Shown here: positions 12,854 through 63,652 of the stretch, piece by piece
Numbering within the stretch: the first letter of the stretch is position 1
How the letters are laid out: every line of letters starts with the position of its first letter
Source of the DNA: Octopus vulgaris
Taxonomy: Eukaryota
DNA length: 64,000 nucleotides
Reading direction: 5' to 3'
NCBI GenBank assembly: GCA_951406725.2
Contig: OX597817.1
Location: 123,504,001 to 123,568,000, forward strand
Notes under the pieces: model-generated
What the model was told of the DNA's origin: nothing
Database searches by the model: none
The model's input: the letters and a program-made list of their open reading frames with translations, nothing else
Program-made: the position numbers and the translations under genes

Positions 12854-12865
12854 ATATATATATGT

Positions 12866-13094
12866 TTCTTTATTACCCACAAGGGGCTAAACATAGAGTG
12901 GACAAACAAGGACAGACAAACGGATTAAGACGATTACATCGACCCCAGTGCGTAACTGGTACTTAATTTATCGACCCCGAAATGATGAAAAGCAAAGTTG
13001 ACCTCGGCGGAATTTGAACTCAGAACGTAACAGCAGACGAAATACGGCTACGCATTTCGCCCGGCGTGCTAACTGTTCTGGCAGCTCGCCGCCT
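12866..13094 (-). mobile_element. tRNA-derived SINE family B, full length
   Basis: The minus strand starts ggcggcgagctg and contains the B-box-like gagttcaaattcc. Near-identical to 21656-21885 and 31620-31850. Confidence 0.9.
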
Positions 13095-16153: not shown

Positions 16154-16812
16154 TACGTGGGACTAGCCAAAAGTAACGGGAACCGTTCTCTGTGGGACAA
16201 ACCAATTGTAATTCAGGCTTCCGCCATTACAAGCCACTTGATGCGACCCTCAGGCATCAATCTGCCGACCGACATCAACTCGTGTAGTCCTTGTTCAGGT
16301 TGACTCTTGAGCTCCCGAATGAAAACATCATGAAAATTCATGAACTGATCTTGGAGGATCGTCACCGAACCAGTAACGAACTTATTGATCTGACTAGTGT
16401 GTTCTGGAGCTCCTTCGAACGAATTTTGAGCGAGGAATTGCGAATGGAAAGAGTTGAGGCAAACTTGTGGCTCTCTTGCTCACGAAAGATCAAAAGCGAT
16501 CATGGCTGAATGGATGTCATGAAAAAACAGTCGGATGTTGATCCGGACCTTTTTCGAAGGTCATTACTAGTGATGAAGCTGGTGCTGTGAAATTTGTTGA
16601 TGTGGAAGAGGTGAAGAAAACAAAACGACGAAGTCGATAAAAGATATCACTTCGCAAGAGTCTAGCACTGCTTCGAATTTTGGAAAATGCGCCTGAACCG
16701 ATGCATCGCTTCAAATGGAATATACTTTGAAAGCGTTTAAAGTGTAAACGAGTAAAATAAGTGAAAAAAATAATACTGCAAAATTCCCGTTTCTTTTGGG
16801 TACCTCAGCGTA
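16154..16812 (+). mobile_element. Internally deleted mariner element nested in the outer mariner
   Basis: TA-flanked degraded TIRs (ccaaaagtaacgggaa / ttcccgtttcttttgg). Encodes ENIMKIHELILEDRHRT..RILSEELRMERV, plus an ITSDE-like first catalytic motif. Confidence 0.75.
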
Positions 16813-17832
16813 GTGTCCATCACAAGCGATCATTTCTGCACCTCGTTGAACCCAACTTTGAATCTATTCTGAAAAACTTAAGATGTGCACTATTATACTT
16901 TCTTCTTCACAACCTCTTTCACTTCACCTGCGTCATCAAATCATTTTCCTCACAAAATAGTCTTTTCTTAGACCAAAAAGTGGATGTTGGATCACTGACT
17001 AGCCTAAGTTGCTGTTGCCCTTATTTACAATCAAATGTGTGTGAGGTAGTTCATTTCCAGGAAAACGTGGATCATTTTCAGATTCTTGCTTGGTCTTTTC
17101 CTTTTCATGGCTTCTCTAAGCTTTTTGAGTATTTCGATACACAGATCGCTGTTCATGGTACAGCAGCGCTCCAAAGAAACAAAGTATATGGCACCCTTGT
17201 CATCTTTCAAAACTGTCACCTTGAACTTTTATGCCAATCATTAACTTTTGAATATTAATAACGTTTAGGGACACCGTATTTCATTATACAACCATAATAT
17301 ACTACAAAGTATATTAAACACTTTTATAAATCAATATTATGTTCTACTGCGTTAGCAGTGCTATCATATCAGTGTTGGCTATGATTTCTATAGAAAATTT
17401 ACAGATATAAGCTTGACAAGTGATTTTTGAATATTTTATGGCTTGGAGAAAGTACGTGATGCCATTCCAGGGATTGATCTGTGTTTTCCGGGTCATAAAG
17501 ACACGTCCACATTACATTGCCTGTCATCAAATCAGAATAAACGCGTCTTCAAACACTTCAAGCAGATCAGAGCAAACTTCAACTCTTACGTTCATCAAAT
17601 TGGCTGCCAACTGCCATTTTGCAGTCACTTTCCGATACTCAAAGTCTTCCTCAATTATCTGTAATGCATCTTGATCCCAATCCGTGAATCAGTTCATGCA
17701 CTTGGTGGTCATTCATGTCAGAGGTGATTATTCATAGTTTCGTACTGCATGGTTTTCTCTTCTTTAAAGCTCTTCTTTCGTTTGTGCACAATCTTCTTGC
17801 CAATGGTGTCTTCTCCATCAACAACCTATAAC

Positions 17833-18770: not shown

Positions 18771-21655
18771 GCATGCATGTATCTATTTATCAAGGCTGGC
18801 TAGATTCGTAATTACAATGACGAAAAATTCATCTCAAGAACTTCTAATTAGTAATTTTAATTTAATATGCATGCATACATGAGTGTGCTTTGAAGTGAAT
18901 GTGTGAGTCTGACGGTTGTAAAATTACACTGAGAGATGAAATTCAAGTTGAGAGTAGCATTGGCTTTAACAGCTAGTTATACTCTAGATTATGTAATTCT
19001 GGTTCTCACTGCTAAATAGGACGGACGAACATAGATATATGTAAACACACACACACAGGCAAAGTAACTCGTTAGAAAATCTCAATAAGGGATGAAAGCA
19101 GTAACTATACAGTATGGCTATTCGACATTACTATCGAGCAAGTTATTGGTGCAATCTGCACTTAGTATGTATTTGTGTGTGTAACTTTTAGCAAGGTAAA
19201 TTTAGCTATTGAATATGAACAACCTTAATCGATTTTCCAACCATATAGGGTTCTGATCAGCGGATTCTACATCAGTCTGACCAATCCCAGAGAAACTAGC
19301 AGCCATTTTGTTTATATACACAACCAGTTCAATAGCTACTGAAAACTAGTGCTATTAATTTGTATATCAATATCAGGGCCTGTCAACAGGGATCTCAATT
19401 CACACAGTATCAAAGTATGACATTATATATGTATCCTATATAGAAGATATATAAGCAGGGAAAATGTTGCTATTTCTTTGTAGATTGAAGAAATGATGAA
19501 CAGCTTAATCGATTTTCAAATCTCTGTTGGTTCTCATCAAAATTAAATTTATATATATGTGTGTGTGTGTACATGGGTATGGTAAGTAAAACCATAAAGC
19601 CTCAAGTTATTGTTGTTCTATGACAGCAATTGGTCCAAGTTAAACCTCTTATAGCCGTCTGTAGGTAACACAAAACTTTTATTTTTATGGTTACAAAGTG
19701 GTGCTTGTCTACCAACACACTTATATTTGTATAGGTTCAATTCATATGTCATAATGGCATTTTGCTATAATATCTATATTTATGTAATATCGTTTTTATT
19801 TGCAATAATATCCGTTTTAGTAGGAATTATTGTACCCAGCTGCTGAGTTAAAATTAGGTAGTTCTCAATAACAGAGAGTTGATATAGAATTGCTTGGTTT
19901 AGTGTATTCAATTATTGACTACTCAATTTCAGATCTGCCAACATATATTTTTTTTCCATACATGTTTCTACAAAGCTAAGGCATTTCTTTTTTCTACATT
20001 TCTGATGATGAGGATAAAACTGAAAAAACTAATCTTGAAGTGGTTAGCTTTTCTTTTGCCTTAATTCCTGACGACTGAGGTAACTAATCTAACAGTAAAG
20101 TATTAGGATATAATTTGCTTAATGCATTGCTTGAGCACTTGCCATTGGGCAGGTACTTTTGCCTAGCTCTACAATTGCATCTGACATTTCTGGGTATTGT
20201 TTAGGTTACAACACAAGAGTGTGCTCATTATGATGCTAAAGACATGTTTGTTGATGTAGCTAAATTTAATGTTGCTTTCATGGAATACTTAATGATAGTT
20301 TTGGATGGATGGAATGTGTCTTTTATTAGCACTAATATGTTACTAGCTACATTAGTATATTTTGCAGTGAAAGATAAGTGAAGCTATATGATATTATGCT
20401 TTCTGAATATGTTGTGCTGCTTGCTATTCAATAAGAACAACACCAAATATCGTCCAGAATGAATTAATCATAACTTTCTCCATACAGCACACAAAATAAT
20501 CTATTGCTTTGTATGTGGAATGACTACAACTTGATCTGGTAATTTGCTTGAAGCATTATCATGTCTGCATATAAATAGGGAAGAAAATAAAAGCTACTTA
20601 ATAAAGCAAAAGTGAACAAACTCTAATCTTTAACAGTAATATGTTTCAGTTCAAGATTAGAGCTTGTTAAATATAATTTAATGAATAAATTTATTTTCCT
20701 CAAACATTGCATAGTTAAGTGGATTTTTATTTACCTTCTAATTTACATATGAATAGAATTTGATTTATTTTACTGAATAAAGAAGATGTCATCCAATTAC
20801 CAATATTACTGACACTTTTGGAATTGTTGCTGTTGTTGTTCTTTTAGTGAAGTGAAACTAATGCAACATTTTATTATTAAACCAAATGTCCAATTACTTG
20901 AAATCATGGTGTTTTCATATAACTAGGATTACCGTATTGCTCTCTAATTCTTCATTAAGCAAGAAACAATATGAATAACTGATATAAGCAAGAGATCAGA
21001 TCTTGGGTGGGAATGAAAAAAGTATCACTTATAATAACCTGTGCTGTTTTAAGGCAGGGACACACTGGGCAGTTACCAGTGAAATCCTACACTCTAGGAC
21101 TGAAACCTAATCTATGTAGCTTGTGGTTTACTGTCAATAAATATTATAGTGTCCAGTTCATTGATTTGCCTGGAGGCCTATAATACTTCTAAGATAGCTC
21201 TGATATCATTACCAGTACATCACTAGCATTTTCTTTTATTGATACAGGAAAGACAAAAGACAAAACTAAGACTAATGAAGTTTATAATAAGAAATTTTAA
21301 TGTAAAATTCAAATATTTTTCATCATTAATCATTCTAAGAAAAATATTTTCATTCACTGATCTATATCTAGATTTTGCAAACATATCATTACTGTTGTTG
21401 TAGTTGTAACTAATGCCCTGTTTGAACTAGTATTGTCTGATCCTTGAAGCAGAAGCATGTATACAGAATGAGATATTACAATTAAGTTAATGAGACAAAA
21501 AAATGCAACCACCAACATTGTCAAAACGTTTGCACATAAAAACATATATGCATGTATATGTTTGTAGGTAGATAGGTAGTTGGCTGGTAGGCATGTAAAT
21601 GTGTGTGTAGTGAGTTGAGTGTTAAAAACGTCAAAATCCTAAGCAAGATACATAT

Positions 21656-21885
21656 TTCTTTACTACCCACAAGGGGCTAAACACAGAGGGGACAAACAAG
21701 GACAGACAAGCGGATTAAGTCGATTACATCGACCCCAGTGTTTCACAGGTACTTAATTTATCGAACCCGACAGGATGAAAGGCAAAGTCGACCTCGGCGG
21801 AATTTGAACTCAGAATGTAGCGGCAGGCGAAATACCACTAAGCATTTCGCCTGGTGTGCTAACGTTTCTGCCGGCTCACCGCCTT
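21656..21885 (-). mobile_element. SINE family B, full length
   Basis: Near-identical to 12866-13094. Confidence 0.9.
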
Positions 21886-27419: not shown

Positions 27420-28150
27420 TGTCACGGATCTCACGTCGATCAAATCCAACCCTTCTCAGTTGTACCAAGTGTTCTTCCCGTTTCAATGCTGTAATTAATT
27501 TCTATAGTTTCGAATGTGTGCATGTTAAAGAATTTTGTACTGCGATGTGATATCCCTCTAAATGCGAGACATATCCGATTCTGTTCTAAAGCTGACATTC
27601 CGACTATCAATGGAAAACAAAGGAGAAATTCTCCGTTGTCTAATTCCTCTATCGCGCACGCATTCTATGTACGATAACTGAAAGTAGGACACAAGTTCTT
27701 GCGGAAGATCGTCATCATCTACAAGATCTTCGATTCCATCAATCACATCACCGGGAAGAAAAGCTAGCACTGAAAAACATCTGATCTTAATGCTAAACTC
27801 ATTATCATGATGGTATCTTTCCTTAAAGCCAAAATCACATACTTTTCTGTACACATTTTGAGATAGAGGAAAAAGACAATATGTGATGGAAGCACAATGA
27901 AACAGATAAAATGCTTTCGCAAAATCCACCATAACTCAGTCCTTGACGTAATTCATTTAAGCTTCTTTATTCTTGTTTGGAAGTAATGCTGTGAATGCTC
28001 TGTATGAACCCATTTGAATATGAAGCGTGTACAACTGATCAAATAAAGTTGAGGAGCACTTAAAAGTTCCATCATCTGCCCAGTGTTTTACATTCACTAT
28101 CATTAAGCCCTTTATCAGTTGCAAACACAAGTAATCTATCTACACGGTTT
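27420..28150 (-). pseudogene. MULE/Mutator transposase remnant
   Basis: WADDGTFKCSSTLFDQLYTLHIQ, MVDFAKAF, CLFPLSQNVYRKV, LAFLP and SYF..YI..PLF, in the order of the MULE DDE domain. Confidence 0.8.
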
Positions 28151-28175
28151 CACAAACCTGAAGGCACCGTCAAAA

Positions 28176-28635
28176 ATGGAAATGCAAAGATCCTATGGAA
28201 TTTTATGATTCAGTGCGACCATGAAATAGAGAATAGGAAGCCGGACATAGTTTTAATTGAGAAAGAAAACAAACTATGCTGCATCATAGATATAGCATGC
28301 CCAGCTGACAACAAGGTATGCGATAAGGAAGAAAGAAAATTCGAGAGATATGACAGGTTAACCTGGGAAATTAAGCAGTTGTAGTAGAAGAAAAAGGTAG
28401 CAGTAGTACCAGTAATTGTCGGCGTCCTGGGAACAGTGAGCAAAAATCTCGAGAATTACGTAGAACAAATAGGGGCTGCAATAATGGTGGAGCACATACA
28501 GGAAACAGTACTGCTTGGAACCGATCGAATACTTCGGAAGGTGCTTGAAAAAGAAGAGGCGTCACCTTAGTTTACTGGTAGTGAACAGCTAACACTGTAA
28601 TACATCTCCAGCGTTATTAGCTGTGCAAAGACAAT

Positions 28636-29563: not shown

Positions 29564-31619
29564 CATAAATATCTATCTATTGATATGTTTGTGCATTTAC
29601 ATGCACACATACATACATAGTACGTACGTACATACATACATACATACATACATACATACATACATACATACATACATACATACATACATACATACATACA
29701 TACATACTCATGTCAATCTTTTCGTGAACATTTATATTTGTATTTCATAGATCTGAAACAGAAAATGAAATAAAGAATCTCCTGAATTCCATTTTCTGTG
29801 TCTGATCTATTTGTATAAACTCAACAGACACCAAGGAATTCTCGAGTAAATCCGGTAGCATAATCATTACTACCGACGTTGATATCAGATAGCCAACAAC
29901 TGTGGACGTGCTTTATACAGCATCGAGCAAAGCTCATACCCGAGTCTAAGTATAATTCTAAGTATTTGTATTTATATATGATGTATCAATGTGTCCATCC
30001 ATATTTACATACATATACAAATAGACAGATAGATATGCCTTCATACATACATATACAGGTATATATGCGTAAGGAAGTGTGTGTGAATATATGAATAAAT
30101 ACATAATTTCATAAGAGATTATCCTAAAGCCAATATGATATATTCATATTCTACCTCCACTCTTCTTGTACTTTCCATAAATGTCAAGCAACAAACCTTT
30201 ATAGACAACAACATCGGAACCTATTCTATTGTATGACATAAGTGCTCAGCGTTACATTAAATAGAGAGAAACATTTCCGCAAACACTCCAGCACCAGGAA
30301 CAAAAATTTGAAAGATAAAAAAAATATTAAAAAATATAAATGAATAAAAAATATGATAGTCATATTTAAATAGCCAGCAGGTGATAGATGAAAATAAAAG
30401 TAAATAAAAACAGGTGGAGGATTGCTAATTTATCTTGAAGATGTGCCAATACCGATATTGACATCGTGAAAAAGTAACTGGTTTCTATAAATAATATGGA
30501 AACTGAAAAAAAGTTGTAAAATATGAAACGTGTGTGTGAGTGCCTGGGTACACACACACACACACACCCACATACACACATATATATATATATGTAATAC
30601 ATGTATATATATGTGTTTTTAGATGCATATACATTTACATATATGCACACATATAGATATATACACAAACGTGTATATATTTATATACATATATATGTGT
30701 GTAGTTATCTATATATGCATATATTTATGAATATATGCATATCGGTTTATATATATATATGTGCGTGAGTGTGTGTGCATGTATATGTGTGTGTATACTG
30801 ATATACAATTTATTCACTTATATTTCATAGACACACATACTTACACATACATGCAGGCATACATATATATGTACATACATATTAATACATACATACATAC
30901 ATACATACATACATACATACATACATACATACATACATACATACATGCACGCATACGTACGTTCGGAGGTTTATACATATATTCTCGAGAATAGTTTCGG
31001 AGTTTACAAAGATAGTTGCTAGGGGGTGGTTCTACGAATGAAAGGCTACATTTTTGTTGCGTCTGGTTTAACTTCAGTAACTGTCAAAAGTATTCATGCT
31101 CTCTTTACTCAGCCTGCAGTGCTAGGAGCAAAAAGATAAAGATGAGAGTGCAAGAAAGGACATTGCGTTGAAAATATGCTGTCAGTAGTTACAATAATGA
31201 AGTCAAAAACGAATGGGGAAGGAAAGACGTTAATGAATTATAAAGACTGACTTCGTTTTAACACTCTTTTTGTGTGCTTACACTTTCCTTCAATCTTTAC
31301 TTTTCTTTTTCTTTTCTTTACACCCATGCCTTATTCAAAGCGCAGTGCTACCGTTCAATCGTTTAGAAGAATTTTTTTCTCTTTCTCTTTGCTCTGACGA
31401 AGTGCTTTGCCTTAAACATCATTACTCTCATTGCAGTATATCATCTATTGTATGTTCAAATATTACTTTTTTTTTACCAATGCATACCATAATTAGTTAC
31501 CTTTTATTTGTTGTTCTGTTTAAATTTCAGTGAATATCACGTACATATATATTTATTTATGTGTGTTTGTATGTACACACATGTATGTATGTATGTATGT
31601 CTCAATGTATGTATAAACA

Positions 31620-31850
31620 TTTCTTTATTGCCCACAAGGGGCTAAACACAGAGGGGACAATCAAGGACAGACAAACGGATTAAGTCGATTATATCGACCC
31701 CAGTACGTAACTGGTACTTATTTAATCGACCCCGAAAGGATGAAAGGCAAAGTCGACTTCGGCGGAATTTGAACTTAGTACGTAACGGCAGACAAAATAC
31801 CGCTAAGCATTTCGCCCGGCGTGCAAAAGATCCTGCTAGCTCGCCGCCTT
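31620..31850 (-). mobile_element. SINE family B, full length
   Basis: Near-identical to 12866-13094. Confidence 0.9.
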
Positions 31851-35816: not shown

Positions 35817-35821
35817 TTTCG

Positions 35822-36030
35822 AAGGCAGCGAGCTGGCAGAAACGTTAGCACGCCGGGCGAAATGCTTAGCGGTATTTCGTGTGTCTTTATGTTCTGAGTT
35901 CAAATTCCGCCGAGGTCGACTTTGCCGTTTATCCTCTCGGGGTCGATAAATTAAGTACCAGTTACACACTGGAGTTGATCTAATCAACTGCCCCCCCCCC
36001 GCAAAAAAAATGTTGGGCCTTTTGCCTAGA
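35822..36030 (+). mobile_element. SINE family B
   Basis: aaggcagcgagctggcagaaacgttagcacgccgggcgaaatgcttagcgg..gagttcaaattccgccgaggtcgac. Confidence 0.9.
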
Positions 36031-36360: not shown

Positions 36361-37355
36361 TATTGGGTTGTCTGGAAAGTTCGTGCCGATTTTTAAAGGA
36401 AAGAAAAAGGTCAATAAATACTTGCCGTTACATTTTTAATCAACCAGATATACTCTTTACTCTTTTACTCTTTTACTTGTTTCAGTCATTTGACTGCGGC
36501 CATGCTGGAGCACCGCCTTTAATCGAGCAACTCGACTCCGGGACTTATTCTTTGTAAACCCAGTACTTATTATATCGGTCTATTTTGCCGAACCGCTAAG
36601 TGACGGGGACATAAACACACCAGCATCGCTTGTCAAGCAATGCTAGGGGGACAAACACAGACACACAAACATACACGCACATATATATATATATATGTAT
36701 ACATACATACGACGGGCTTCTTTCAGTTTCCGTCTACCAAATCCATTCACAAGGCTTTGGTCGGCCCGAGGCTATAGTAGAAGACACTTGCCCAAGATGC
36801 CACGCAGTGGGACTGAACCCAGAACCATGTGGTTGGTAAACAAGCTACTTACCACACTCCTGCGCCTATAGCCACTCCTGCGCCTTTTGTTGCACAATGT
36901 GTCTTCATCTTTCCTTTAACTTGAAAATACCCTCTTCCCAGAATTGAGGTGGTTTCATGGCAAATAATTCATCAAGGTATCTTTTTACGTCATCCAAGGA
37001 ATTGAAATTTTTACCATTAAAACTATTCTCCAGAGACCTGCATAAGTGGAAATCCGAAGGAGCAACATCTGGTGAATATGAGGGGGGTGTAACACATCAC
37101 AGCCGAGCTGCAGCAATTTTTCTCTGGCTCCCAAAGCATCAATTGTCGAAAGTGAACTTTCTTATTTTCCAATTTAAAGGGTTACAAAATTAACACAGGT
37201 TATAGGAACATAAATTTTATTCCACGAAAAGATAGCTTAAACTCTGCTCTAAATGGAGGCGTAGTCAAATCCTATTTTATGGACTTAACTATGTTCTAAA
37301 ATAAGTCGAATTGTAAGCTACATAAATCGGCACGAACTTTCCGGACAACCCAATA
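36361..37355 (-). mobile_element. Internally deleted mariner transposon interrupted by a SINE
   Basis: ~30-bp TIRs ttgggttgtctggaaagttcgtgccgattt / aaatcggcacgaactttccggacaacccaa with a TA TSD. The minus strand encodes YSPDVAPSDFHLCRSLENSFNGKNFNSLDDVKRYLDELFA. Confidence 0.92.
36463..36886 (-). mobile_element. tRNA-derived SINE family A, full length
   Basis: Minus-strand head ggcgcaggagtg..ggtaagtagcttg..ggttcagtccc, an internal CA/TA microsatellite and an A-rich tail. Confidence 0.9.
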
Positions 37356-41795: not shown

Positions 41796-42076
<281 letters not shown>

Positions 42077-42340
42077 TATAATTTAGAACAAACAATTAAA
42101 TGTTTTCTTTATAGTACTCGGAGTTTTGAATGTCAGAGGTAAGAGCCACGATGCATTCGCGCCAGATATTAATGGCAACAGATGCTATGAAAAACTGTTG
42201 AATAAAAGGGAAGTTACTCTAATAGGAAGAAAAAGAAAAAAGAAAAGCGATAAAAAATACACGCAAGCATATTCTCATAATATATAGACATAAACCTCCT
42301 GTGTTCACAACGTCTACATATATACATGTATCTATCTATC

Positions 42341-42399
<59 letters not shown>

Positions 42400-42462
42400 T
42401 GACAGGGCGAGACTGCTAGGTAGTCGGCCGCATGCTAGAAATAGATCATCAACGATCAAACT
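42341..42462 (+). repeat. Left copy of the duplicated flank: (TA)n(TG)n plus the first ~64 bp of the MITE TIR
   Basis: Repeated at about 43388-43534 on the other side of the array. Confidence 0.85.
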
Positions 42463-42756
42463 GTACATATAACCTTCGAAGGTTATATGGATACAGTTTG
42501 TGTATCAAATAGCTAACTTAAGGCGATGGCCTCATGGAGCTAATAAGCGGACAGCTTTATTCTTACTTTTATAAGAATGCCATATTAGTATGGCGATAAC
42601 TATTAATTTCCAGGAACGCTGCCGTGTTCTCTTTTAGAGAGACTTAGTAATTTTAATATTTCTATTATTGAAAACAAGTGGATGTATTCCACCGAAACTA
42701 GGTAATAAAACCTTCGAACAGAGATAGTCGGAAGCGACACCTACTGGTCTGACTAC

Positions 42757-42798
42757 GCTACATTGACAAGGGGCAATACCCCGAAATGCGTCTGTTGC
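42757..42798 (+). ncRNA. Type I hammerhead ribozyme, copy 1 (U3:A8 variant)
   Basis: gctaca-TTGACAA-gggg caata cccc-GAAA-tgcg-TC-tgttgc. Predicted cleavage after 42792. Confidence 0.8.
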
Positions 42799-43118
42799 TG
42801 TCGACCAAGTAGTGTGGAGCGACTGACCTCCCTTGTTCGAAGGTTATATGGATACAGTTTGTGTATCAAATAGCTAACTTAAGGCGATGGCCTCATGGAG
42901 CTAATAAGCGGACAGCTTTATTCTTATTTTTATAAGAATGCCATATTAGTATGGCGATAACTATTAATTTCCAGGAACGCTGCCGTGTTCTCTTTTAGAG
43001 AGACTTAGTAATTTTAATATTTCTATTATTGAAAACAAATGGATGTATTCCACCGAAACTAGGTAAATAAAACCTTCGAACAGAGATAGTCGGAAGCGAC
43101 ACCTACTGGTCTGACTAC

Positions 43119-43160
43119 GCTACATTGACAAGGGGCAATACCCCGAAACGCGTCTGTAGC
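43119..43160 (+). ncRNA. Type I hammerhead ribozyme, copy 2 (U3:A8 variant)
   Basis: gctaca-TTGACAA-gggg caata cccc-GAAA-cgcg-TC-tgtagc. Perfect 6-bp stem I, palindromic ACGCGT stem III and a GUC triplet. Predicted cleavage after 43154. Confidence 0.88.
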
Positions 43161-43388
43161 TGTCGATCAAGTAGTGTGGAGCGACTGACCTCCCTTGTTC
43201 GAAGGTTATATGGATACAGTTTGTGTATCAAATAGCTAACTTAAGGTGATGGCCTCATGGAGCTAATAAGCGGACAGCTTTATTCTTATCTTTATAAGAA
43301 TGCCATATTAGTATGGCGATAACTATTAATTTCCAGGAACGCTGCCGTGTTCTCTTTTAGAGAGACTTAGTAATTTTAATATTTCTAT

Positions 43389-43466
<78 letters not shown>

Positions 43467-43470
43467 TGTA

Positions 43471-43833
43471 TTGACAGGGCAAGACTGGTAGGTAGTCGGC
43501 CGCATGCTAGAAATAGATCATCAACTATCAAACTACAAAGAATGTTCTCCAGAGGAAAATTTAGCGAACACCAGAACCAAAGTTCGCGGGCAGGACAGAT
43601 GAAAATTTATATAAAAAAAACAGAATTAATCGCATACCTCGGTTTCAGCCTTTAACAAAAGAATTACTTACATAATTCAAATGTCCGTGGCCTCATTAGT
43701 ACGATCGTTCAGAATAAATGTAATCTGAAAATCTAACCCCTAAATTTTCCTCTAGAGAACATTCTTTGTAGTTTGAGCGTTGATGATCTATTTCTAGCAT
43801 GCGGCCGACTACCTAGCAGTCTTGCTCTGTCAA
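43471..43833. mobile_element. MITE with ~94-bp terminal inverted repeats and TA flanks
   Basis: 43471-43564 is the reverse complement of 43740-43833, with few mismatches. Confidence 0.92.
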
Positions 43834-43931
43834 TATACACATGTATTAGAATTTTTTTCTGATTTTTCAGATTTGTGTATGCTATATTACTGGTTTTAAA
43901 TTGAAATTAAAATTAATATTAATTTATCTCC

Positions 43932-43977
<46 letters not shown>

Positions 43978-44576
43978 TCTGTATCTATGTATTTGACTGC
44001 ATACTTATACATCTATACCGCTCTCATGGGACAGATTGTTGCTGCACACTTAAATAGATCAGAGGACAAAATCTCAACTATACGCTTCGCTTTTAGCTTG
44101 GTTTCTAGGTCTGTATGCTGTTCTTAACACCAAACTTTACTGAGTGCCTTATTTTATGCCACTAAATTGCAAAGGTTGTTATGTCTTTGATTAGAATGAG
44201 CTGGGTTCGGTTTATCATGGCACCAGCACCGGAGAATATAGGAGTACGAATAGGAGGTATAGCAAGAGTGCATAAATGGCAATGGTAAAGGATGCACGTC
44301 AGAATTAAACTGTCAGTGGTAACTATAAATAGAGTGGGTGGAACATCAGCATATCTGATGTGACTCTATAAATATAAACATCAAGATAAATGTTAAAGTT
44401 GGTGTGAAAATGTAGAGAGAGGGCATGGAAGTACAATCAGATTGAGAAGAATAGAGAGTGGTATAGAGATGTGAAACAAGGATTTCAGTGTCGGAGACAT
44501 GGGAGTTGGCATGTATACTCGTACATGTATAAACTCAAACACATACAAACATGCATGTGTATGTATATACATATCT

Positions 44577-45814: not shown

Positions 45815-45931
45815 TATATGTTCGTTTCTGTGTTTTTTTCATTGTTCGAAAAACAGTTCGTTTTCTGTTTTCGTTTCTCATTGTGTTCAACGTTTTTTTG
45901 ATGTCCTGTACCCATATATGCATGTATATAT

Positions 45932-46026: not shown

Positions 46027-46830
46027 ATATATAGGTATATACATATATGTATGTATATATGCATATATTTATATATTATTTATATTATCATATGATCGAA
46101 CGCCACGCATCCTTTTCCAAGTAAGTTTATCTTAATAATTACGGTGCGTACTCTTCTATCTCTACTATCTCATCTCTGTCTATCTCTCTCCCTCTCTTGT
46201 TCTTCATCTTTTCTGGTTTTCTCTCCCACCCTTCCCTTTTCTTCTCCTCTCTTCTTTACCGTTCCCTCTCTCTTACTCTTCATCCTTGACTCTCTCGTCG
46301 CTGACACGTGACGGAAAGGAATCTATCTTTCTGCCCATTTCTTTGCTAAAGACAACACGTGCTTATACCTGTCTCCTCTCATAGCTCATCCTCCTAGCGT
46401 TCATAATAATTTTTCCATTGGCTCAACAGCCCTCACCGTTTGTTTATACTGTCTTGCTCTCACTGTCCTGTTCTTGTTACCATTTTCACCCTCCGCAAAA
46501 AATCCCAAATTTTATTTAATTTGCTTTGCGGGAAGGATTGTTTCAAATCAGTCGCGTATTTTCCTTACTTTCGGAACGCGGAGTAGATGAAACAGGAACA
46601 ACTGATGAATGGGGATATTCTTTATGTTGCATGTCTCGTTTCTCTGTTTTTTCGTTGTTCGAGAAAGTTCTATGTTTTTGTTTTTATCTTTTCGTTTCTC
46701 ATTGTGTTCAACGTTTTTTTAATGTCCTGTACCCATATATGCATGTATATATACATATATATGTAGGTATGTACATATATGTATGTATATATGCATATAT
46801 TTATATATTATTTATACCATTATTTATATA
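45815..46830 (+). mobile_element. Unclassified repeat with a duplicated 3' segment (about 45820-46090 and 46637-46830), probably Penelope-like terminal repeats
   Basis: tcgtttctcattgtgttcaacgtttttt..atgtcctgtacccatatatgcatgtatatataca occurs twice, embedded in (TA)n. Confidence 0.5.
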
Positions 46831-46977: not shown

Positions 46978-48936
46978 ATCATCACCATCGTTTAACGTCC
47001 GTTTTCCATACTGGCATGGGTTGGACGGTTTTACTGATGTCTGGAAAGCCAGCAGCTGCACCAGGCTCCAAACTGATCTGGCAATGTTTCTACAGCTGGA
47101 TGCCCTTCCTAATGCCAACCACTCCGAGAGTGCAGTAGGTGCTTTGTACATGCCCACAGCATGGGAACCAGTCAGAGGGCACTGGCATTGACCATGTTCG
47201 GATGATGCATTTTACGTGCCACTGGAATGGTGGCCAATCAGGGGCCACTGGCCACAGCTACGATTTTCGTTTTACTTAACTCAAGAGATCTTCTCAACCA
47301 TATCATATTGCCCGACGCATCAGATGTACTTTTAAATGGGCCAGACATGCAACACTGGCATCGGCCATGGTTTCGATCTCACTTTATTTGTCCGGTTTTC
47401 TCAATCACAGCATATCTCCAAAGCTCTCCATCTCCTGTCATTGCCTTTGTGAGGCCCAACATTTGAAGGTCATGCTTCACCACCTTGTCTTATGTCTTCC
47501 TGATCTACCTTCTTACCAAAGGTTCCTTCCACAGTTAGGGCATGACACTTTCTCACACAGCTGTCTTCATCCATATATAACACATGACCATACCAGCACA
47601 GTTGTCTCTCTTGCATACCACATTTGATGCTTCTTATATGCAACTTTTCTCTCAGGGCACTCACACTTTGTCGTGTATGAACACTGACATTACACATCCA
47701 GTGGAGCATACTAGCTTCATTTCTTTCAAGCCTACGCATGTACTCAGCAGTCATGGCCCATGTTTCACTGCCATGTAGCTTGGCATTTCACACACATGCA
47801 TCATACCTTTCATCCTGAGCGAGAAGCCCTTTGTTACGATCAGAGGTAGGAGCTCCCTGAACTTTGCCCAGGCTATTCTTATTCTTGCTCCTAACAACCA
47901 TCCTCACTAAAGATTCGGTCGCCTCGGTAGCGGAAGCTATCAACTACTTCTGCTTATTCCCCTTGGCATATGATGGAATCTTCAGTGTTTATTGCCCCTG
48001 TGCATCTGCCACACACAAAAACTATCTTCCCGGTTAACCTTCCTTTAATAATGCTGCACCTTTTATGTGTCCATAGCTTACACTGAGTACATCATATGGA
48101 GTCTCTACTCATACATTTTCAACAGATCGAGCAAGGCCATCTACCTGAAGGGGTTTGGGATTTGTCAGCCTTCCTACTTACTAAGACTTTGGTTTTTGCT
48201 AGGTTAACCCTAAGGCCCTTTGATTCTAGCCCTTGCTATCACACCCTAAACGTTGTTTCTAGTTCTGGCAGTGACTCAGCTTTTAGAGCAAGGTAATCAG
48301 TAGAGAGGGGCTCCCAGGAGAAGCATGTCTTAAATTCCTCTGTTATTGCCTGGAGGATTATGATGAATAAGAGGACTGATCCTTGGTAAACCCCTATTTC
48401 TAACCAGAAATACTCGTTGCTGACAACATCCCTGTAGAGGGCTTGTACAACTCTTACCAACCACTCGTCAATCCCCAGTTTCCGCATTGACCACCAGATA
48501 AGGGATTAGGGGACTCTGTCAAAGGCTTTCTCTAAGTCAACAAAAGCTAAGTACAGAGGTTTAATTTTGGCTAGATATTTCTCTCGCAGTTGCCTTACCA
48601 GAAATACAGCATCAATGGTGCTTCTGCCTGGCACAAAACCAAACTGCATTTCGTCTAGGCTAACTTTCTCCATAATTAGTTGCGCTATGGTCCTCTCATT
48701 AACTTTCATTACTTGATTCAATAATTTGATACCCCCCTGTAGTTATTTCTATCTAAAGCATCACCTTTACCCTTGTAGCAGCTGACTATGGTGCTGCTAC
48801 ACCAGTCATTGGATATGACTCCTTCATGAACTACCTGATTTATGATGCAGGTGACACGACCATAACCCACACCACCCGATATTTTAAGCATCCCAGCAAG
48901 GATTGCTGATGGGCCAGGTGCTTTCCCTGTCTTCAT
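46978..48936 (-). pseudogene. 5'-truncated RTE-clade LINE (RT domain, 3' UTR and (GAT)n tail)
   Basis: KTGKAPGPS, YKGKGDALDRNNYRG, DEMQFGFVPGRSTIDAVFLVRQLREKYL, LAFVDLEKAFDRVP, GVYQGSVL and RQLCWYGHVL. Frameshifted. Confidence 0.95.
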
Positions 48937-49266: not shown

Positions 49267-50085
49267 ATCATCATAATCATCATCGTATTTTGCGTCCGTT
49301 TTCCATGCTGGCATGGGTTGGACGGTTTGACTGGAACTTGGTAAGCCAGAGGGTTGTCTCAGGTTCCTGTCTGTTTTGGCTTTTTTCTACGGTTGGATAC
49401 CCTTCCTAATGCCAACCGTTCCACAGAGTGTAGTGGGTGCCTTTTATATTCACCCGCACATGTGCTGTTTATGTGTTAGTGGCACAAGTGCCTTTTACAT
49501 GTTACTGGCATGGGTGCCTTTTATGTGTCACCACTGCTGACCACAACAACAATTTTACTTAGTTTGACTTGCCTACTCCAGCACAGCAAATTGCCAAATG
49601 TCTCTGTCATTTGTCATCACCATGAGACTTAGCATCCCAAGATCAAACTTCACTGCTTCATCCTATGTTTTCCTGGGTTTACCTCTTCCACAGGTTCTGC
49701 ACAGTTAATGATTGATACTTCTTTACACAGTTGTCTTCATCCATACACATCACATGATCATACCAGTGAAGTCTTCTTTCTTGCAAATTACTTCAGATGT
49801 CTCTTATACCAAAATTTTTCTCTCAAGACTTTTGCACGCTCTAATACATGAACACTGACTTTGTTCATCCAGTGAAGCATACTAGCTTCATTTCTTTCAA
49901 GCCTTCACATGTTTTCTGCAGTAACAGCCCATGTTTTACTGCCATGCAGAATGGCTGTTTGCAGACAATCACCCTGCAATCTGCCTTTCATACTGAGGGA
50001 GAAGTCCCTTGTTACCAACAAAAGTAGAAACTCTCTAAAATTTTTCCAGCTTTTTCTCATTCTAGCAGCTACACTCTCAAAACCT
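49267..50085 (-). mobile_element. Second, more diverged RTE LINE 3' fragment
   Basis: Homologous to 46978-47890 (gtccgttttccatgctggcatgggttggacgg; agcatactagcttcatttctttcaagcct). Confidence 0.88.
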
Positions 50086-56097: not shown

Positions 56098-56935
56098 TCT
56101 CTTTTACTTGTTTCAGTCATTTGACTGCGGCCATGCTCGAGCAAATCGACCCCGGGACTTATTCTTTGTAAGCCCAGTACTTATTCTATCGGTCTCTTTT
56201 GCCGAACCGCTAAGTGACTGGGACGTAAACACACCAGCATTGGTTGTCAAGCAATGCTAAGGGGACAAACACAAACACACACACACACACACACATATAT
56301 ACATATATACGACAGACTTCTTTCAGTTTCCGTCTACCAAATCCACTCACAAGGCATTGGTCGGCCCGGGGCTATAGCAGAAGACACTTGCTCAAGATGC
56401 CCCACAGTGGGACTGAACCCGGAACCATGTGGTTGGTTAGCAAGCTACTTACCACACTGCTACTCCTGCACCTATATATATATATATATATATATAATTA
56501 TGTTATATTCCATTAGGAATGTGTTAGAGTATAGTATAGAGCTCATCCACCCTGTAATTACTAAGTGGTGGTATCGGTAGTATTGGTAGTATTATTATAT
56601 ACTTCCAAGTTTAAATCTGGTTATTCATCATGTGTTAATATCAAATGTTCAACCATATTCCTTCTTCTTGACTCCAATTTCTTTAATTTCATATATACAT
56701 ATGTATGTATATGTGTATGTATGTATGTATGTATATATTTATGTGTTATGTATGTATGTTTGTCCCCATGCCATCGCTTGACAACCGATGCTGGTGTGTT
56801 TATGTCGCCATGACATAGCAACCAACAGAATAAGTACTAGGCTTGCAAAAACGTAAGTCTTGGGCTCTCTTTCTTTGACTAAAACCCTTTAAGGTGATGC
56901 TCCAATGAAATGACTGAAACAAGTAAAAGAATGAA
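55875..56935 (+). mobile_element. SINE family A in plus orientation, in two pieces (55875-56010 and 56757-56935)
   Basis: The 5' piece (agcttgtttcccaaccacattgttccaggtccagtcccactgc) and the 3' piece (tttgtcccc..cgcttgacaaccgatgctggtgtgtttatgtc..tgactgaaacaagtaaaag) flank an opposite-strand copy. Confidence 0.7.
56097..56473 (-). mobile_element. SINE family A, near full length
   Basis: Near-identical to 36463-36886. Confidence 0.9.
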
Positions 56936-59200: not shown

Positions 59201-60009
59201 TATTATTTTGTATCTAATTGATCTCCATTCGTTGGATCAGGTTTAATTGTGTGTCACAATATATTCTTAAGACTAACTGCAGAAATATATTTCAAATTAA
59301 AAACTCTTTTCTTTTGCTTAATGTAATATTTTTTGTTTATTTATTAATCCTAATTTTTTTGTTTTTTTTATATATTTGTTTTGGACAGTTTTGGTTTTAC
59401 TCTTTGAATTCTGTGACATTTTAGTGTAAAGTGTATAGGATATTGATGAAAGCATTGTCAGTCTTGTTACATTACTTATACAGCTGCTGCTACTACTATT
59501 ACCAGAATTTTTTTGTTTTGTACTTTTTAAAATTTTTTTTAAAATATTTTATTCCAAATTATATCCCAGCTTTTAACAGTAATCTGGTAAATTACCAAAC
59601 GTTAAAATTCTTTTTTCTTCTCCAGGAAAAAAAAAATACCTTTCAACAAATTTGACAACTCTTGGTAGCATTTGGTGGGATGGAAGGATGATGTAGCTTT
59701 CTATCTATCTATTTCTTTTTTGCCTTTTTATTTTTCTTCCAGGTTGTATTTTCTTTGAATTTTTGCCATTAAGCTGAAGTTAAATTGGTTTCTTCAACAC
59801 TGAAAACTTAAAATAGATAGTCAGAAATCCTAAAACTATTTCTATAAGTTATGCGAGAAGTAAGAACATTGATGTTTTTTCTTTGTTTGTTCTTGTTTTT
59901 ACAGTTGTAGATTGTTGTAAATCCAAGATGTAAACTTCCAAAAAGCAAAAGAAACTTAATCTTTGAAAGGGTTTCAGTTCCTGACTGAATCAGTTCATTT
60001 ACTGTTAAG

Positions 60010-60192
60010 GTGGCATGTAAAAAGCACCCACTACACTCGTGGAGTGGTTGGCATTAGGAAGGGCATCCAGCTGTAGAAATACTGCCAGATCAGACTGGAG
60101 CCTGGAGCAGCCCCTGGCTCCCCAGACCCCGGTTGAACCGTCCAACCCATGCTAGCGCGTTAAATGATGATGATGATGATGATGATGATGAT
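60010..60192 (+). mobile_element. RTE 3'-tail fragment or RTE-partner SINE ending in (GAT)n
   Basis: ggagtggttggcattaggaagggcatccagctgtagaaa..ccgtccaacccatgc is the reverse complement of the RTE 3' UTR at 46980-47140. Confidence 0.85.
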
Positions 60193-61384: not shown

Positions 61385-62010
61385 TTTGCTATGTATATTT
61401 TGTGGCTTTCCATTTGAGATTTAATTTCCATTTCTGCAATTTATTCTCCAAATCTTCTACAGATTCTACTTTAAAAACTAGATCACCACTATACAACAGT
61501 TTCTTTGGATACCCAATGTTAAATGCCTCTGTAATGGTTTGGAACACTTTAATAAATTGGATGGAACTGAGAATGGAAACCTGATGTACCCATACTTGCA
61601 TGCTAAATTCCATGCTGAAATTCTTGTTATATTTCACCTCAGTGATGGCAGTTCTCTACATGGATGCATGGATTTCATAATCCATTCATCTAGCTTTAGT
61701 TATTTTAGCAATACCCAGACCATTAAACATGAAACCCTATCAAAGATTATCTCTAGTTCCAGAAAAGATAGGTAGCAAAGATTATCCTAGCTATACCTAT
61801 TTCTGTAGTTGTATCATTAGGAAGGTGATGTTCATGTTGCCATGTCCAGAATTAAACACAAACTGCTTCTCACCTATGTTATTTTGGTTATATATATGGA
61901 CTGGTTCAACTTTCGCAGGAGTCCCTGACATTTCAACATCTCTTCAGCTGAACTCTAGGCCCTTCGATGTCTCTGACATTACCAAGAATTCATCATTAAA
62001 CTGGCTTATA
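61385..62010 (-). pseudogene. Old RTE RT fragment
   Basis: EFSMQVWVHQVSILSSIQF..LLYSGDLVFKVESVEDLENKLQKWK, i.e. degenerate GVHQGS / LYADD motifs. Confidence 0.7.
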
Positions 62011-62701
62011 AGGGTGGAGCTGTAGTGGTATGGTATGCAGACCTTTACAAGGTTGAAGCTCTCCACCAACTTCAAGACATCTTTTTTGTTGCCCTCTGCC
62101 ATCCAACCCCACACCTAACTGCCAACAGACTTTATCTTCCACCATTCACGACTTCATTTCCTCCTCCTGTCTTCCTCCCACTGCCTCTGACCTTATTGTC
62201 TGTACCCCAATATCCTTCCCTGTACATTGGTCAAATGGGATCTGAGACATCAGACTTGGCAATAACACCCTGGTGTCATGCTACTTCCTCTTCACCAGTC
62301 ATTCACTACAGCATCTATCTGTGTTTGGATTGTCTTTTCACAGAGTTCACCTGGACTCCCACCTTCACCATGAACAGAAATTAATCTTCTCCCTTCATTC
62401 CTTTGCTTTTTATGGTCTCAATTCACTACTTCTCTTTATCTAACACCAACTCCACACAGATTCCCATACACCTCCCACATTCAACTGCCCCTCCTCTCCA
62501 CCCTAACTCACTGCCTAACTCAGCAACCACATCACACACATACCACTATACAAACACCCATACACACTGTTCAATTCAGTACTCACATCCCACACCACTA
62601 CACCCACACACACCTTCCCACTCCAAACACATGCCACACACCATTATATGCACTCCCACTCCCATACACATGTATAAAATATATACATATATGTATATAT
62701 A

Positions 62702-63320
62702 CAGGGTGTATAAGATATTTGAGGACAGATTTATGTTTATAAAAAAAAGACAGATATGTAATAACAAATAATAACTTTATTTATCAAAATATGCTATGAG
62801 GATAAAAATAAACCTCCTTTTCTATAAATGTTATTCAATAAAGCCACCTTCTGCTTCAACAACTGCTTCTATATGAAATCTACATCATCTATATACTTGA
62901 ATCCAGTGGTCCTGGTTCATTTTGGACATTACTCTGACTATGGCAGCCTTCAAAGAATATTTGGTGCTATGGGCATGTTCATTGATCTCTCTCTTAACAA
63001 TGCTTCACATGTAATAGTCCAATAGATTGAGATCTGGTAAATTAGGAAGCCAAACGATAGGGGTTATGTGATAATGAGAATTTTCAGCCATCCAATCCTG
63101 TGTTACTAGAGCGATCTGTGATAGTGCAGAGTCTTACTGAAACACATATGGCTTCCCATTGCATACACTGTGTATCCAGAGTTTAATAGTTATTTCCAAG
63201 ACCTCAATGTAGGTCGCAGATTTAACTCTAAGGCATTGTAGAAAGACGTAAGGATGCACCACATGTCCTTCATTGCTGACAAACTCTAAAACCATGACAA
63301 TTGCAGGAAATTTTGTATAT
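62702..63320 (-). pseudogene. Tc1/mariner-superfamily (DD37D/maT-like) transposase 3' remnant with one terminus
   Basis: FPAIVMVL..VSNEGHV..YIEVLE..PYVFQ*DSALSH..WLPNLPDLNLLDYYM. Terminus TA|cagggtg at 62702. Confidence 0.75.
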
Positions 63321-63329
63321 ATATCTCGT

Positions 63330-63652
63330 GCTGGTGGCACATAAAAAGCACCATCCGTTCGTGGCCATTGCCAGCCTCGCCTGGCCCCTGTGCCAGTGGC
63401 ACGTAAAAAACACCATCTGATCATGGCCGTTTGCCAGCCACGCCTGGCACCTGTGCCGGTGGCACGTAAAAAGCACCCACTACACTCACGGAGTGGTTGG
63501 CATTAGGAAGGGCATCCAGCCGTAGAAACATTGCCAGATCAGACTGGGCCTGGTGCAGCCTACTGGCTTCCAAGACCCCAGTTGAACCGTCCAACCCATG
63601 CTAGCATGGAAAGTGGACGCTTAACGATGATGATGATGATGATGATGATGAT
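63330..63652 (+). mobile_element. RTE 3'-tail fragment or partner SINE with internal ~65-bp repeats and a (GAT)n tail
   Basis: gtggcac.taaaaa.cacc occurs three times, followed by the same tail as 60010-60192. Confidence 0.88.

Follow-up and report, generated by a model that had tools for sequence, protein, structure and literature searches.

Introduction

Metazoan retrozymes of the non-LTR type consist of tandem units of 150–450 bp (PMC7229834). Their target-site duplications (TSDs) are described in the same text simply as larger than 4 bp, and an "active" retrozyme is defined by two consecutive units with complete hammerheads (bioRxiv 10.64898/2026.07.22.740005). Canonical metazoan hammerheads have a helix I of 6 bp, a helix II of 4 bp and a palindromic helix III (PMC4209133), and U3-A8 is a documented covariation of the hammerhead core (PMC4209133; PMC3088659). 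The enzyme that mobilises animal retrozymes is stated to be an open question (PMC7229834; bioRxiv 10.64898/2026.07.22.740005). As evidence linking them to Penelope-like elements (PLEs), these texts offer co-occurrence, shared ribozymes and pLTR phylogeny (PMC7229834; PMC8557442; bioRxiv 10.64898/2026.07.22.740005).

PLE copies show head-to-head inversions with a palindromic overlap, for which self-priming is the published reading; an inverted piece of 181 bp is given as an example (PMC3846280). The origin of the tandem and inverted PLE structures is itself stated as open, and some PLE clades prefer (TA)n as a target (PMC8557442). A purified PLE protein assayed in vitro cleaves the two target strands and extends each of them; it initiates within uncleaved RNA, requires no homology and favors ATT (PMC11167929).

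Inversions and long duplications have also been described for other elements. Twin priming of L1 predicts microhomology at two places, where the 5′ end meets the target and where the inversion is joined (PMC2912911). Twin-primed inverted pieces of L1 have medians of 292 and 751 bp, and overlap between the two cDNAs is common (PMC12016303), while genomic DNA inversions at L1 breaks are the subject of bioRxiv 10.1101/2024.12.14.628481. Foldback inversions of yeast form a size class of 5–34 bp (PMC11724301). HERV-K TSDs of 111 and 250 bp are on record (PMC5488345), as are "extremely long TSDs" of 5′-truncated L1 in HeLa cells (as cited in PMC2912911); the passages of bioRxiv 10.1101/522623 on this point show TSDs of 9–18 bp only, and PMC8490949 yielded no TSD length. 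Here we describe a locus of Octopus vulgaris that combines a tandem array, a short 5′ inversion and a long flanking duplication, and we weigh the ways in which it may have formed.

Tandem array and predicted hammerhead

The window, that is, the whole stretch of DNA that we analyzed, covers 64 kb of contig OX597817.1 and contains no N bases. The insert studied here occupies 926 nt between two copies of a flanking sequence and is made of 12 nt of net inverted sequence followed by an array of 2.5 copies of a 362-bp repeat (units of 361, 362, and 194 bp; Table 1). Between units 1 and 2 there are 5 substitutions and 1 indel, and the partial unit differs from them at 3/194 and 2/194 sites, so that divergence within the array is about 1–2%. 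In-window BLAST detected no second copy of the 362-bp unit in the 64 kb; a match with E = 0.002 at 62722–62754 was rejected as an A-rich stretch.

Table 1. Coordinates of the features of the locus, numbered from the first letter of the window.
Feature	Position	Strand	Remarks
Left microsatellite (TA)11(TG)17	42341–42396		(TA)11 at 42341–42362, (TG)17 at 42363–42396
Left flank copy of TIR positions 1–66 (MITE-like element), ending at CAAACT	42397–42462	+	
CAAACT, 6-nt microhomology common to the TIR and the inverted copy	42457–42462		Complementary to unit 21–26 (AGUUUG)
Copy of unit positions 26 to 1, inverted (head-to-head)	42457–42480	−	24 nt, 2-nt deletion
TTCGAA, the unit's own 6-bp palindrome, inversion junction with zero spacer	42475–42480		
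Array unit 1, 361 bp	42475–42835	+	
Hammerhead of unit 1 (predicted)	42757–42798	+	Core kept; carries C15.2-to-U, and stem I has one U-U mismatch
Array unit 2, 362 bp	42836–43197	+	40% GC
Internal arm pairing with unit positions 1–19 in the predicted fold	43054–43080	+	Unit 1 equivalent 42693–42718
Predicted type I hammerhead ribozyme, unit 2	43119–43160	+	Predicted cleavage after 43154
Partial unit 3, 194 bp	43198–43391	+	Overlaps (TA)n by 3 nt; inferred first-strand start
Right microsatellite (TA)7(TG)28TA(TG)4	43389–43468		
Intact MITE-like element, 367 bp	43469–43835		TIRs 43469–43564 and 43740–43835

The longest stop-free stretch in unit 2 spans 54 aa. The unit has no ORF, and the reverse transcriptase and GIY-YIG endonuclease of an autonomous Penelope-like element are absent from it; it is at most a non-autonomous client of a PLE and not a PLE itself.

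According to our in silico analysis, unit 2 carries a type I hammerhead with a stem I of 6 bp, a U3-A8 core, a stem II of 4 bp and a palindromic helix III (ACGCGU). A type I descriptor that allows U3-A8 matched once over both strands of the 64 kb, compared with no match in 20 dinucleotide shuffles. Two changes damage the hammerhead of unit 1, and one of the two hammerheads, that of unit 2, passes the strict descriptor. When two intact copies are cofolded, they are predicted to share an intermolecular ACGCGU helix III and to have an open core. The circular monomer is also predicted to be strongly self-paired, with a folding energy of −114.3 kcal/mol against −78.2 ± 5.4 kcal/mol in 60 shuffles (z −6.7); the linear monomer gives a z of −6.8. 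An Rfam search of 42000–44200 returned no ribozyme family (25 sub-threshold matches, nearly all on microsatellites), and positions 43000–43200 gave no match. The U3-A8 core together with the minimal helix III would explain this miss.

In its tandem, non-coding units of 362 bp, its GC content below 50%, its predicted type I hammerhead with a weak palindromic helix III and its self-paired circle, the array resembles metazoan non-LTR retrozymes (PMC7229834; PMC7761336; bioRxiv 10.64898/2026.07.22.740005). It departs from them, as far as these texts describe them, by the U3-A8 variant of the core and by having a single hammerhead that passes the strict descriptor. No LTR-like arrangement is visible. 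Judged by the features that can be tested on sequence, the insert is thus very probably a retrozyme-like (non-LTR) tandem array. The original prediction had not recognized it as bearing a hammerhead.

The predicted cleavage site falls at unit position 319, with the 3′ end of the array 237 nt and its 5′ end 43 nt past it. Since neither end lies at the cleavage site, the array fits a circular or an uncleaved multimeric template. The hammerhead is on the plus strand, and the 3′ side of the RNA therefore corresponds to the right end, so that first-strand priming at (TA)n has the right polarity. This part of the proposed target-primed reverse transcription (TPRT) from a (TA)n nick is supported, whereas the microhomology invoked with it at the right junction does not inform (see below).

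A second hammerhead-like remnant lies at 43029–43066 (unit about 194–231; also at 42668–42704). It has TTGAAAA, a short stem-loop and GAAAC-TAG-GTA, and it fails the descriptor. The 3′ end of the array lands on the first core base of this remnant, which may be chance.

Duplicated flanks and the MITE-like element

As predicted, (TA)n(TG)n and the start of the TIR occur on both sides of the insert, at 42341–42462 on the left (122 bp) and at 43389–43534 on the right (146 bp). The left 66 bp read TATTGACAG...CAAACT (64 bp if the TA is left off), and the right copy of these 66 bp, at 43469–43534, differs from them by 3 substitutions (BLAST E 8e-26). The two ends of the insert coincide with the ends of the repeated stretch.

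The window is rich in microsatellites, and nine compound (TA)n(TG)n tracts were found in it, both flank copies included. Because such tracts are common, the microsatellite is weak evidence of a duplication, and the 66 bp are therefore its sole unique support. In a self-BLAST of the window, the five rows within the locus are 94.8–98.6% identical, compared with 67–91% for the other 72 of the 77 rows.

The element whose TIR is repeated is short and non-coding, with TIRs of 96 bp each that differ at 5/96 sites and with TA at both ends (either the target or part of the TIR), as in MITEs. One full copy is present in the 64 kb, and in-window BLAST detected no further one. The element sits in a near-palindromic TGTGTA/TACACA context. 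Between its TA dinucleotides it measures 363 bp, near the 362-bp period of the array, and this closeness is probably a coincidence.

Junctions of the insert

The left junction contains the inverted start of the unit that had been predicted there, with 2 nt missing and with CAAACT shared with the target. Aligned to the reverse complement of unit 1–26, these 24 nt show one 2-nt gap (TC) and no mismatch (score 43). Outside the TTCGAA palindrome and with the junction fixed, nine exact arm matches are expected by chance with a probability of 4.4e-6. We rejected an extension of the TIR to CAAACT-ACA by way of a GT insertion, which scores 10 against 43 for the inverted parse.

Microhomology amounts to 6 nt at the 5′ junction and 6 nt at the inversion junction, and the net inverted sequence between the two is 12 nt (42463–42474). 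Across all joins of the TIR region with the unit, a microhomology of at least 6 nt has a probability of 0.0019. GUUUG, within AGUUUG, is a predicted hairpin loop and belongs to the top 0.6% of 5-mers for unpairedness, while the whole 6-mer priming site is predicted to rank no higher than the most accessible 18% of sites. Unit positions 1–6 lie inside a long helix in the predicted fold, where opening would cost 15.3 kcal/mol, against a median of 4.8 kcal/mol. The internal arm, read directly, is a near-copy of the left junction (score 31); the resemblance follows from the arm being the pairing partner of unit positions 1–19.

At the right junction, TTTCTATTAT closes the unit at 43391, and the last 3 nt are shared with (TA)n. 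This overlap is uninformative because 22% of unit positions would overlap as much, and the microhomology claimed for this end thus does not exceed chance. The (TA)n target is likewise weak evidence, since the window contains 58 tracts of (TA)6 or longer.

Comparison with described insertions

Two features set the array apart from retrozymes as described in the main texts: its 5′ piece is inverted head-to-head, and the duplicated stretch includes at least 66 bp of unique sequence. Among the papers listed in a literature search, none describes, in its title or the start of its abstract, an inverted palindromic junction or a duplication above 100 bp on a retrozyme array.

Inverted 5′ segments are indeed a published feature of Penelope-like insertions, as the original prediction had stated, and they come with palindromic junctions (PMC3846280; PMC8557442). 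Like insertions of endonuclease-bearing PLEs, the array is a partial tandem with an inverted 5′ copy that abuts the main copy at a palindrome; it sits in a (TA)n target, and neither of its ends falls at the ribozyme cleavage site (PMC3846280; PMC8557442; PMC11167929). It differs from them in having no ORF, in an inverted piece of 24 nt instead of most of a pLTR, and in a duplication of 122–146 bp compared with TSDs of 8–10 bp in the PLE examples (PMC3846280). Its left end also has 6 nt of homology, whereas the PLE protein tested in vitro starts without any (PMC11167929).

The inverted 5′ segment, the microhomology at both junctions and the cDNA overlap recall L1 twin priming (PMC2912911; PMC12016303). 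However, the array has no poly(A) tail, and its inverted piece is about ten times shorter than the L1 medians and overlaps the forward piece completely (26 nt), against a median overlap of 12 in L1 (PMC12016303). The TSDs of 5′-inverted L1 insertions are 10–17 bp (assay cited in PMC2912911), compared with at least 66 bp here.

Short foldback inversions of yeast provide another likeness, with an inverted templated copy of 5–34 bp, possible long-loop pairing and capture by microhomology (PMC11724301). In our case, the folding end would be a retroelement cDNA, the spacer is zero and the capture involves 6 nt, just beyond the 0–5 nt seen in yeast. With long-TSD retroelements the locus shares a duplication of at least 100 bp around one insertion and the same pseudo-TSD caveat (PMC5488345; PMC2912911), but those cases concern different element classes and have empty sites available. 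The unusual parts of the locus are the length of the duplication and the tiny inverted piece.

Models of the insertion

In our preferred reading, to which we give a probability of about 0.38, the 2.5-unit array, the flank duplication and the 24-nt inversion come from one Penelope-type TPRT event in which both target ends primed on the RNA. A PLE protein acting in trans would nick the bottom strand inside (TA)n, and a multimeric RNA would then be copied for 2.5 units from an internal start at about unit position 194. The top strand would break about 120–145 bp away, after CAAACT in the TIR. Its CAAACT end would anneal to AGUUUG at the predicted RNA hairpin loop and be extended by about 20 nt toward the 5′ end of the RNA. 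Both cDNAs would halt in the most stable helix of the unit and then anneal via the self-complementary TTCGAA; the spacer would be zero because the two ends anneal at a palindrome. Filling of the long stagger or gap-repair synthesis would duplicate the stretch between the breaks, both routes leaving the same product, and slippage would later have altered the microsatellite lengths. This reading is favored by the microhomology at both junctions, the unpaired GUUUG, the opening cost of unit positions 1–6, the zero spacer and the in vitro behavior of the PLE protein, with a PLE-like relic 18 kb away. Counting against it are the length of the duplication, a left fragment as distant from one TIR as from the other, the accessibility rank of the whole 6-mer, a PLE protein that requires no homology, the negative Rfam result, the absence of DNA similarity to the relic and the restriction to one locus.

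After CAAACT the top strand is minus-sense, so the template must be plus-sense, which leaves either the RNA, as in twin priming, or a folded-back cDNA. The second of these is possible: the TTCGAA end of the first-strand cDNA would fold back to pair with TTCGAA in an earlier unit of that cDNA and copy about 20 nt with a 2-nt error, whereupon end joining at CAAACT would attach it to the target end. Such a snap-back comes near to the original prediction, in which microhomology primed the second strand at a distant nick. Long-loop foldback on the previous unit junction predicts the observed extension except for the 2-nt gap, zero spacer included, and makes the complete overlap of the inverted and forward pieces automatic. 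A length of 24 nt fits foldback inversions of 5–34 bp, which are longer where microhomology matches the other end (PMC11724301), and self-priming is how palindromic PLE junctions have been read in print (PMC3846280). By contrast, the same length counts against priming from both target ends, being far under L1 twin-primed and PLE lengths, and so does the TIR break, at which there is no ATT, unlike the in vitro preference of the PLE protein. Against the snap-back, the loop left by the short natural hairpin would be 5 nt long, 3 nt more than observed; capture in yeast uses 0–5 nt of microhomology (median 2) compared with 6 at the array (PMC11724301); and the PLE protein does extend both target strands in vitro (PMC11167929). 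One difficulty bears on both priming models: a 10-bp pairing to the internal arm should beat the 6-bp TTCGAA pairing, and it predicts a different extension and another junction. Provided that the duplication was made at insertion, we put priming from both ends and snap-back at about 55:45, and one locus cannot separate the two. Of the original proposal, the microhomology at the left end thus stands above chance, and the snap-back is one of two near-equal routes.

Both routes assume that the duplication was made at insertion, which we consider probable. The target duplication of about 120–145 bp predicted for this locus is real as a repeated stretch. Compared with either TIR, the left fragment differs at 3 sites, and it is thus no closer to its presumed twin than to the other TIR (the TIRs themselves differ at 4 of the same 66 sites); of the 5 variable sites, those at positions 10 and 59 are alike in the left fragment and the left TIR. 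The duplication may therefore predate the insertion. In that case, which we regard as unlikely, two MITE ends beside (TA)n(TG)n would have pre-existed, by local tandem duplication or because members of a young family had landed here twice independently, and insertion of the array would have removed whatever lay between (TA)n and TIR position 66. The divergence of the flanks equals that of the TIRs (3/66 vs. 5/96, p = 1.0) and is about threefold the per-lineage divergence of the array, and the abundance of compound microsatellites (nine in 64 kb) would favor such an arrangement; pseudo-TSDs have been discussed for long duplications at retroviral sites (PMC5488345). Yet dating by divergence, which we tried, was not significant (p = 0.11 and 0.12 for the excess). 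A pre-existing duplication also requires two events, other MITE copies are absent from the 64-kb window, the boundaries of the insert match those of the repeated stretch exactly, and the 95% identity at the locus exceeds the 67–91% of the 72 of 77 self-BLAST rows, all of them elsewhere. As for the prediction that the array is younger than the MITE, the array junction interrupts the TIR and must postdate it, while the equal divergence of flanks and TIRs gives no measure of the age gap. Divergent flanks would also be accounted for if the microsatellite and the TIR fragment had arrived as a 5′ passenger of the donor RNA, inserted at a similar site. Host DNA capture by PLEs has been reported (PMC3846280), but this barely plausible course needs targeting to a homologous microsatellite-MITE site plus an earlier junction of like form.

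The remaining explanations dispense with the inversion or with the locus as assembled. Reverse transcriptase might have switched between two TTCGAA sites, from that at unit position 1 to the internal one at unit position 240, copied about 20 nt directly and joined the target at AAACT, after which quasi-palindrome correction would have matched the arms. The internal arm does align to the junction, AAACT and GTA included, but this requires 2 substitutions and 2 gaps against one gap for the inverted parse, in an array diverged by only about 1–2%, and we find it very improbable. An assembly or haplotype artefact, in which an insertion allele and an empty allele were joined through (TA)n or a foldback chimera was produced, is quite improbable. 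Genome assemblies are known to struggle with the tandem and inverted structures of PLEs (PMC8557442), and the right junction lies inside a microsatellite; however, substitutions distinguish all three units and both flanks, the possible overlaps are just 6 nt and 14 nt, and the window is free of N.

Significance of the locus

The locus is a real and clean scar left by the insertion of a hammerhead retrozyme-like array, and its anatomy is of the Penelope type. That non-LTR retrozyme arrays are written into the genome by Penelope machinery, which would prime at both ends of a target broken at points over 100 bp apart, is a tentative and rather doubtful extension of our preferred reading. If true, the locus would be a junction-level signature that ties retrozymes to PLE integration, through the inversion at a palindrome, the start in (TA)n and the ends off the ribozyme site, and PLE integration can duplicate long host stretches. 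A single locus without an empty site is a lead and not a result, and each of its ingredients has precedent; it gains interest only if the junction pattern recurs over the family. Junction scars offer a cheap and countable test of this kind, namely the 5′ inversion points, start sites and duplication lengths over a retrozyme family. TSD searches limited to 5–30 bp would miss duplications above 100 bp.

Other features of the window

A decayed relic of reverse-transcriptase type lies at 61896–62384 (+), 18 kb from the array. It has 28 relatives at E ≤ 0.001, and a DKG/DKN-type motif is found in 23 of them; DKG is a described motif of the PLE reverse transcriptase (PMC8557442). Judging from these sequences, the relic is consistent with a canonical Penelope-like element and suggests that PLEs exist in this genome, which does not by itself link them to the array. 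A word-based protein search with the relic scored nothing, Pfam matched neither the relic nor any of the 14 relatives scanned (of 28), and BLAST detected no DNA similarity between the 362-bp unit and the relic at about 62 kb.

Dispersed SINE-like families with 67–91% identity between copies occur at 12865–13094, 21648–21885, 31613–31850, and 35821–35989, among others. Further such families (67–91%) are found at 36468–36867 and 56099–56467, and at 46981–47236, 49276–49465, 60009–60156, and 63382–63625.

The short ORFs at 28064–28384 (+), 47470–47787 (−), 27558–27935 (−), 63134–63502 (−), and 16517–17258 are presumably fragments of transposable elements, and we take them to resemble a restriction-like endonuclease LINE, an RTE LINE, and Mutator and Tc1/mariner transposases. 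Pfam, run on eight ORFs of the window, gave sub-cutoff matches alone, in 3 of the 8, and confirmed none of the LINE or transposase identities among those scanned.

Two local pairs of direct repeats were observed as well. The first, 1426–1598 and 1825–1997, is 85% identical over 175 bp with 227 bp between its copies, and the second, 45818–45924 and 46631–46745, is 82% identical over 118 bp with 707 bp in between. Both pairs could be older insertions with long duplications.
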